From a virus (lineage: Duplodnaviria; Heunggongvirae; Uroviricota; Caudoviricetes): a DNA stretch of 24,913 bases. Made by a program: the position numbers and the translations under genes. The stretch is from the IMG/VR virus record IMGVR_UViG_2537562172_000005; one strand, 5' to 3'. This document shows positions 14,472 through 14,753 of this stretch, piece by piece. The notes under the pieces are model-generated. The model saw only the letters and a list, made by a program, of their open reading frames with translations. It had not been told where the DNA came from and did no database searches. Every line of letters starts with the position of its first letter. Position 1 is the stretch's first letter.

Positions 14472-14753
14472 ATGTTCAAAAAATCATTACTCTTAACATT
14501 GGTGATGTGTTTGCTTTTTTCTTCTTTTGCGGACGCAAAACGGAGACATAAAAGATCATCTCATCGTTCGCAGCATCATCACTATTATAGGGATAACAGC
14601 GCAAGTAAGCAGGAAGTTTGCTCGGAGGGATATGTTGATTATTTTGGAGTGTGCAAGGGCAAAGAGATAAAACAGGACGAAGATTCAAAACCAGCAATTC
14701 AAAAGAAAAAAATAAATAAGGCGAGCAAAAAAAGCACCAAATGTAAAAAATAG
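14472..14753 (+). CDS. Small secreted basic Cys/His/Lys-rich protein (late-region moron)
   Basis: Signal peptide MFKKSLLLTLVMCLLFSSFADA; mature region highly basic with four Cys; AGGA RBS; AT-rich; directly downstream of Q. Confidence 0.5.
   Translation: MFKKSLLLTLVMCLLFSSFADAKRRHKRSSHRSQHHHYYRDNSASKQEVCSEGYVDYFGVCKGKEIKQDEDSKPAIQKKKINKASKKSTKCKK

Follow-up and report, generated by a model that had tools for sequence, protein, structure and literature searches.

The open reading frame (ORF) at 14472–14753 of the viral sequence IMGVR_UViG_2537562172_000005 (Caudoviricetes; 24,913 nt, the whole of which is called the window here) is probably an allele, cut short by a frameshift, of a conserved accessory (cargo) gene that lambdoid prophages carry, situated upstream of the late promoter PR′. 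An earlier note, made from the letters alone, had described the product as a secreted, highly basic, Cys/His-rich mini-protein, strongly expressed upon induction. For this window the analysis mostly corrects that view: a longer gene stands here in a broken copy, and the "mini-protein" is what that copy encodes. The parts of that gene lie as follows:

14463–14466, plus strand: Shine-Dalgarno-like AGGA, 5 nt 5′ of the ATG (read from the sequence)
14472–14753, plus strand: candidate ORF, the truncated allele of 93 amino acids (aa), with signal peptide, His/Arg-rich region and most of the basic linker
14472–14537, plus strand: Sec-type signal peptide of 22 aa, predicted cut ADA-K(23)RR
14727–14733, plus strand: A7 homopolymer with the +1 A frameshift, A6 in relatives (alignment of the window, UMNF18, W13-16 and ETEC1734)
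14734–14880, plus strand: out-of-frame 3′ part of the ancestral gene, with the end of the linker and the C-terminal loop, closed by TAA at 14878–14880
14803–14862, plus strand: family-defining loop PTCAPLNMAHKPGYTNLPIC (Cys113–Cys130), out of frame here

The stop codon at 14751–14753 is a consequence of the extra A in the homopolymer. In most relatives the run is A6 and the frame stays open from the same ATG to the TAA, giving a protein of 135 aa; deletion of one A from the window in silico regains this precursor. Judged against these alleles, the gene does not naturally end where the ORF does, and translation of the window allele would terminate 42 codons early. The surrounding 601-nt region is present in 23 of 5,426 complete Escherichia coli genomes, nearly all of them derived from pigs; UMNF18 and P13-6 are identical to the window and 18 others align one base shorter, the one-base difference in W13-16 being A6 in place of A7. 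Other frameshifts exist besides this one: ETEC1734 and ETEC1732 carry a separate +1 A farther upstream, at an A2-to-A3 site, and the database alleles P0003 and P0008 are shifted at the A8 run 14791–14798. An exact-sequence look-up found the window product on 34 contigs (there called from a TTG, 124 aa) and on 16 more as the 93-aa form, the ETEC1734-type product on 19, and the commonest intact form on 271; because of these counts the truncated allele is real and recurrent, but a minority.

The counts also bear on the idea that the extra A is an error of sequencing or assembly and the gene intact in the organism. A7 for A6 is the classic homopolymer miscall, and in UMNF18, whose assembly is older, the methyltransferase gene is frameshifted as well; the same truncated protein, however, comes from the 34 and the 16 contigs, that is, from several independent sources, and A7 is also found in the complete P13-6 genome, where 5 substitutions over 23.4 kb are all that tell the prophage and the window apart, which makes such an error extremely improbable. 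A biological alternative is that the gene is a contingency locus, in which slippage at the A-runs (A6/A7 at 14727, A8 at 14791), be it at the level of DNA, RNA polymerase or ribosome, switches or partly restores the long form, A7 being an "off" or low state. It would account for independent frameshifts at A-runs (the window allele; P0003 and P0008 at A8), for the commonness of off-frame alleles, and for the fact that A6 and A7 alleles in the 601-nt query are set apart by an indel alone. Yet the frameshift of ETEC1734, an A2-to-A3 change, lies outside any long run, runs of six to eight A are short for efficient slippage, A-runs are expected from the composition of a Lys-rich, AT-rich coding sequence, and the host prophage is in general decay; a switch of this kind is unlikely.

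That the gene is the longer frame is indicated by its relatives. Homologues down to about 30% identity are all 131–138 aa long and all end in the same loop motif. Two elements are invariant or nearly so: the signal peptide ends in A-[DE]-A, and the loop reads P-T-C-A-P-x2-M-A-x3-G-[YF]-T-x-L-P-I-C. The loop is followed by about five residues, usually with a final Tyr. The window ORF, 93 aa instead of 135, has the signal peptide of the family and its basic low-complexity linker, while the loop motif, in frame in A6 alleles, is displaced by A7 into the +1 frame relative to the ORF.

To assess selection, four intact Q-linked genes (that is, genes following the late antiterminator gene Q) were compared codon by codon; their proteins are 57–92% identical to the repaired window protein. 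The ratio of nonsynonymous to synonymous rates (dN/dS) is 0.19 for the signal peptide, 0.15 for the N-terminal region, 0.26 for the linker and 0.089 for the C-terminal 26 residues (58.5 synonymous versus 31.5 nonsynonymous differences, dS about 1); for residues 88–135, the stretch missing from the window allele, it is 0.21. On these codon comparisons the long frame is the gene and is under purifying selection.

The Cys/His-rich "domain" that had been taken as the core of the protein does not hold that place: its Cys pair is absent from the close homologues P0004–P0006 and P0008, and the conserved core is the C-terminal loop. The N-terminal part is variable. In the E. coli/E. albertii Q-linked subfamily it is a His/Arg/Tyr-rich stretch with the Cys pair in the form EVC...GVC; most members from Enterobacterales have there a true YdcA module (NCBIfam PRK10040, E ~1e-23; phrog_6000; precomputed Pfam PF27300), and in a third group (P0014, P0016) the module position is taken by a Gly/His-rich segment and a hydrophobic stretch. 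Two AlphaFold runs (mean predicted local distance difference test, pLDDT, 57 and 59) place confidence in three parts only: the signal helix, the small beta-hairpin of the YdcA module and the C-terminal loop, where pLDDT reaches ~80–84; the linker stays below 50. The family is small, with 24 representative clusters at E < 1e-3 among 1.84 billion proteins.

As far as it goes, much of the earlier description of the ORF stands. A plus-strand ORF of 93 codons does run from the ATG to 14753, and it directly follows Q, starting 75 nt past the stop of the PF06530 Q gene (14017–14397). The DNA is AT-rich as claimed, the ORF having a GC content of 36% against 48% in the window, and it is horizontally acquired. 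A Shine-Dalgarno-like, G-rich element also precedes the common ATG in two other loci (L037 and L026). The signal peptide is confirmed in its details: an n-region MFKK, a 15-residue h-region SLLLTLVMCLLFSSF (mean Kyte-Doolittle value 2.26) and A-x-A (ADA) before K23, with a helix at residues 3–20 in the AlphaFold model and an ADA/AEA end retained across 38 homologues. The protein thereby has the charged n-region, the h-region of 10–15 residues and the small residues at −3 and −1 expected of substrates of Sec and signal peptidase I, and these heuristics, together with the conservation, suggest that it would be exported. A lipobox, [LVI][ASTVI][GAS]C, is not present in it, as the sole Cys of the signal peptide stands in L-V-M-C (Met at −1) and is not kept in YdcA-type members; the protein does not have the marks of a bacterial lipoprotein. 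The mature part is basic as described (71 aa, 21 Lys plus Arg, 5 His, isoelectric point 9.9); the "four Cys" of the mature domain are in fact three, the fourth (C13) lying within the signal peptide. Taken together, these features support the ORF as a genuine coding sequence for a predicted exported, very basic small protein.

Two other readings of the same DNA were set aside. An antisense ORF at 14476–14832 (118 aa) is split in relatives, and the selection signal is in the plus-strand frame. The TTG start at 14379 used in RefSeq (166 aa, overlapping Q) was rejected in favour of the ATG at 14472 because the latter is common to all subfamilies and lies directly ahead of the signal peptide.

The product had not been recognised from the sequence, and searches with the 93-aa and the 135-aa forms likewise brought up no family above threshold in Pfam, NCBIfam, PHROGs or PADLOC, nor any structural phage protein as a homologue. 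Nothing in INPHARED matched by DNA or protein: the gene is missing from the records of cultured phages, though IMG/VR prophage contigs do contain it. Sequence searches of the PDB and Foldseek against it gave only non-significant matches (Dis2, ankyrin), which are leads only; the fold matches are unreliable because of the low mean pLDDT of the models.

Antimicrobial, metal-binding and host-acting roles had been proposed for the product, and they presuppose that the 93-aa protein is itself functional, a secreted basic His/Cys mini-protein released on induction. There is indeed a signal peptide, the mature part is in fact very basic, the exact allele occurs on about 50 contigs, and there is a weak Pfam likeness to precursors of YxzE-like bacteriocin, frog-skin peptide and conotoxin. 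These matches, though, are all that backs the proposed roles; they reach 14–16 bits against cut-offs of 25–40, and the part aligned, which drives them, is the signal peptide. No homologue has the same end point, the N-terminal Cys pair is missing in close homologues, the number of Cys in the mature product is odd (three), a Sec signal by itself leads to the periplasm only, and the gene lies upstream of PR′, so that Q would give it no boost; a functional mini-protein is quite improbable. Most likely the 93-aa product of the window allele is non-functional, because the loop is missing.

The relation of the gene to the late promoter follows from three features downstream:

14895–14922, plus strand: PR′, assigned by homology, with −35 TTTACG (14895–14900), 16-nt spacer, −10 TATCCT (14917–14922) and predicted start at ~14929
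14953–14977, plus strand: first hairpin and T-run after PR′, weakened by a window-specific G-to-A change at 14970
15285–15308, plus strand: intrinsic terminator-like hairpin and T-run past a 65-aa gene, ~380 nt from the PR′ start (terminator scan; RNAfold −8.9 kcal/mol)

The slot after Q had been taken as one of high expression on induction. Alignment to the Sakai prophage Sp5 instead fixes PR′ downstream of the gene, its −35 sitting 15 nt past the end of the long ORF, and for this reason the gene lies outside the Q-antiterminated, Q-dependent late operon. The block 14892–14985 is kept in φP27, where it follows gene L22, in prophages of E. albertii, where it follows a homologue of the candidate gene, and in H-19B and Sp5, where it comes immediately after Q. 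In Sp5 it reads TTTACG-16-TATCAT, and, counted from a start 7 nt past the −10, the T-run of the strong terminator ends after exactly 258 nt; PR′ and tR′ were placed 258 nt apart by differential RNA sequencing and Term-seq (Sy et al. 2020, PMC7547250), both of whose coordinates are offset from the current record by an equal 142 nt. The work of Zhang et al. 2018 on PR′ (PMC6266700) holds no promoter sequence applicable to this phage. In consensus scans no sigma-70-like site with at least 7 of 12 matches was found in 14300–14471 and no terminator between Q, the ORF and PR′; the candidate gene would be co-transcribed with Q from the early rightward operon.

What follows PR′ resembles the StxS leader (PR′-tR′) of Stx phages (Sy et al. 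2020), with the same promoter block and first hairpin after the candidate gene; this leader is the neighbour of the candidate gene, not the gene itself. The window differs from the Sp5 leader in its 126-aa-type Q, in having a 65-aa ORF within the leader and in its terminator, and nothing visible in the window corresponds to the 3′ StxS sequence of Sp5 when both sequences are read side by side, with no formal alignment. Rfam models run on 14000–17000 found tRNAs only, with no RNA family in or beside the ORF and no match to a StxS model. The 65-aa gene (15101–15298) lies between the PR′ start and the terminator at 15285–15308, where Sp5 has the 3′ StxS small RNA. RNAfold gives −6.3 kcal/mol for the first hairpin of the window versus −12.9 in P13-6, UMNF18 and W13-16, and −13 to −18 kcal/mol in φP27, in L037 and L029 (E. 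albertii) and in Sakai. The G-to-A change at 14970 might raise Q-independent read-through to the methyltransferase, tRNA and stx2e genes. Should the first hairpin leak, lysogens would transcribe the 65-aa gene constitutively from PR′.

The stretch that separates Q from PR′ is itself of interest. It is empty in H-19B and Sp5, where Q overlaps the −35. In φP27 (L042 1250–2479, corresponding to 14398–14894 of the window) it holds L22, a gene for 409 aa annotated as "hypothetical protein, unknown", which matches the PADLOC anti-phage defence model PD-Lambda-1 with E 2e-89; homology between the window and φP27 resumes at ~14906, within the PR′ spacer. The gene studied here is found 64–80 nt past a PF06530 Q, and the structural modules of the prophages concerned are of three kinds, lambda-like, P22-like and HK97-like; one viral contig with a lambda-type Q (PF03589) has a YdcA-type member, then the same 65-aa gene and methyltransferase gene. 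The 65-aa gene also follows the homologue in L027, L028 and L032, and is the constant downstream partner in the phage module. Because L22 matches PD-Lambda-1, the Q-PR′ interval of this phage group is, by its sequence content, a defence and cargo hot spot. Like the lambdoid morons (lambda bor and lom; the PD-Lambda-1 gene L22 of φP27), the candidate is a single AT-rich insert, here between Q and PR′, and it has what defines a moron in the sense of Hendrix and Juhala in being an extra gene of deviant base composition (GC 36–39% against 48%) between elements that are adjacent in relatives. It differs from them in that no promoter or terminator of its own was detected in the consensus scans and in having no sequence or domain similarity to them. 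Any insert in this slot moves Q away from PR′, which may matter for the regulation of Stx.

The prophage of the window is of the Stx2e type, from porcine E. coli, and the neighbourhood of the gene is the following:

12594–13649: DUF968 gene
13650–14027: RusA
14017–14397, plus strand: late antiterminator Q, 126 aa, related to those of H-19B and 933W (PF06530, E 8.5e-54; 78.5% DNA identity to the Q genes of H-19B and BP-4795)
15101–15298, plus strand: winged-helix-like 65-aa gene (φP27 L23, phrog_331; phrog_331 E 1.4e-37, φP27 annotation)
15449–16507: N6/N4 DNA methyltransferase
16548–16620 and 16725–16798: two tRNA genes upstream of stx2eA (Rfam)
from 16886: stx2eA

The tRNA genes at 16548–16798 are the usual ileZ/argN/argO-type cluster of Stx phages, and RefSeq records of near-identical prophages add a "tRNA-OTHER" between the two. 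In UMNF18, the older assembly (L001 5149–6197), the downstream DNA methyltransferase gene is frameshifted, and it is intact in the window and in P13-6; the frameshift is either a further sign of lineage-specific decay or one of homopolymer errors in that assembly.

A twin of the window prophage, 99.98% identical, lies at ompW in P13-6 (E. coli O141:H4). An insertion sequence (IS) transposase gene, placed on the opposite strand and close upstream of hokD, separates its DicA/DicC immunity region from the hokD-nin-Q block, and its genes for the large terminase subunit, portal, decoration protein and tail sheath are all truncated. Because of the IS element and the truncated morphogenesis genes of this twin, the Stx2e prophage of the window is probably defective as well, and such decay is consistent with decay of its cargo gene. 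The early region of the P13-6 prophage includes a SIR2-family gene; the stretches that hold the SIR2 gene, the IS transposase gene and the truncated genes (L046 9849–12210 and 22684–30001) correspond approximately to 9150–11510 and 21980–24913 of the window. As a broken copy, outside the late operon, in a probably defective prophage, the gene is unlikely to give a virulence factor co-expressed with the toxin.

The distant members of the family occur in a different setting. The YdcA-type long form is found just after tssE, closing a TssF-TssG-TssJ-TssE block of the type VI secretion system (T6SS), in 16 of 22 species-level loci, often just ahead of a tRNA-Arg(CCT) gene. Such tssE-adjacent "long YdcA" genes (L004 1556–6405 and 15 other loci, among L005–L024) come from Pantoea, Citrobacter, Enterobacter, Kluyvera, Yersinia, Serratia, Erwinia and others; in the literature searched no description of a link between "long YdcA" and T6SS clusters was found. 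In Klebsiella aerogenes (L044 468–13133) the gene stands in a region with VgrG, Tle1-like, three DUF2931 and PAAR genes, beside an ImpA/VasL gene. One family member lies near a D5-type primase gene. An upstream ORF of 143 codons, orf143, is frequent next to the T6SS-linked homologues and has no recognisable family or PDB match; as an obligate partner or effector it was rejected, since it is absent from at least five loci with adjacent tssE.

From these contexts it could be argued that the intact family is one of periplasmic immunity proteins against T6SS effectors and that the prophage copies are orphan immunity genes protecting lysogens. The position of the YdcA-type member after tssE at the end of the T6SS cluster in 16 of the 22 loci, the K. 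aerogenes copy within a variable VgrG/Tle1/DUF2931/PAAR region, the Sec signal and a prophage slot able to hold defence cargo would all fit; there is, however, no conserved adjacent effector, with orf143 missing from several loci, most of the protein is disordered, which is not typical of immunity proteins, and the T6SS and phage copies have only the 25-residue loop and the linker in common, so that this role must be regarded as doubtful.

The relation to YdcA itself deserves a closer look. The YdcA family (E. coli b1419; PF27300, PRK10040, phrog_6000) has a signal peptide ending in ADA, as does the window protein, and in full-length but distant relatives of the window gene the linker and loop in common with it are preceded by a true YdcA module (NCBIfam E 5e-24); YdcA of K-12 is the 57-aa module only, without either. 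The window subfamily lacks the YdcA core C-x4-GGI-x2-C...VCNDG and matches neither YdcA model: the NCBIfam model gives no match for the 135-aa form as opposed to E 5e-24 for P0009 and 4.5e-23 for the L004 protein, the precomputed Pfam column is empty for P0001–P0008, and in the alignment the motif C-x4-GGI-x2-C-x7-VCNDG...C is absent from the window protein. It still aligns to the end of the module, with a remnant of S-x-SK-x-x-CS-x-GY (SQSKRFCSGYG versus SASKQEVCSEGY). YdcA, in the literature a protein of unknown function, is reportedly induced by acid under the control of YdcI, and E. coli W deleted for it becomes more sensitive to 3-hydroxypropionate (PMC7642389).

Beyond YdcA, likenesses are faint. 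The top profile and Foldseek match of the YdcA module is Dis2 of the Legionella Dot/Icm system (Lpg0823; PDB 7MUC/7MUD, chain AN), at non-significant E values of 0.21 and 0.67; one lobe of Dis2 and the module (P0058, residues ~25–50) have C-x4-GGI-x2-C-x4-GR-x-VCN-x-G in common. Dis2 is a small, disulfide-pinned component of the Dot/Icm core complex near the outer membrane (PMC8486379). The likeness concerns the very module that the window protein has lost, and Dis2 is without a C-terminal loop of the present type. For the loop, APL(Y/N)MA(S/H)KPGYT(H/N)L, the only matches outside the family are ankyrin proteins (P0030; Ankyrin-2, 5Y4F, E 0.029), with a resemblance to the first helix and turn of the ankyrin repeat (TPLHxAxxxGHxx). 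It extends over ~14 residues, half of one 33-residue repeat, with no Pfam ANK match; the family loop differs in being, by prediction, stapled by a disulfide and periplasmic and in having Pro where the second ANK helix would be, and the resemblance is probably convergent.

From all this a tentative picture of the intact protein can be drawn. The 135-aa precursor would consist of a Sec signal peptide cut after ADA22, a YdcA-like His/Arg/Tyr-rich remnant, a disordered, Lys-rich linker of ~45 residues and a C-terminal loop of 18 residues shut by Cys113–Cys130, the sole strongly conserved element of the family. It would reach the periplasm via Sec, where Cys113 and Cys130 may then be oxidised; the loop thus closed might dock on a conserved target in the envelope, the basic disordered linker tethering the protein or binding anionic envelope components. 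An exported, envelope-binding accessory protein is the best inference for the intact form from its sequence, and the benefit to the host may be protective (exclusion or immunity-like), as suggested by the distant homologues in T6SS clusters and by the PD-Lambda-1 gene in the φP27 slot. In the window allele the extra A would remove the loop, and slippage at A7 might partly rescue it. A bolder version, rather improbable, would see here a new class of periplasmic factor in T6SS clusters and in the Q-PR′ slot, with a variable N-terminal knob, a basic disordered tether and a loop that docks on a conserved envelope component and either shields the cell from puncture by T6SS or phage tails or aids the assembly of such machines, with A-run frameshifts as the switch.

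Several observations weigh against a decayed, once protective cargo gene upstream of PR′. The truncated allele, on about 50 contigs, is tolerated, and some activity could have been kept or acquired; several independent frameshifts in A-runs could mean phase variation rather than decay. PR′ is assigned in this phage by homology to Sp5, and its −10, TATCCT, matches less well than TATCAT of Sp5 and was missed by a simple scan. Neither the 93-aa form, the 135-aa form nor the YdcA-type member has a PADLOC match; the idea of a protective function leans on genomic context, in which no partner gene is constant, orf143 not being obligate.

For the family the significance reaches further than for this one allele. 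The invariant loop, which had not been annotated before, ties an uncharacterised prophage gene to the "long YdcA" at the end of T6SS clusters across Enterobacterales, and the loop, its Cys113 and Cys130 and the natural frameshift alleles provide a handle on the function of the YdcA family.

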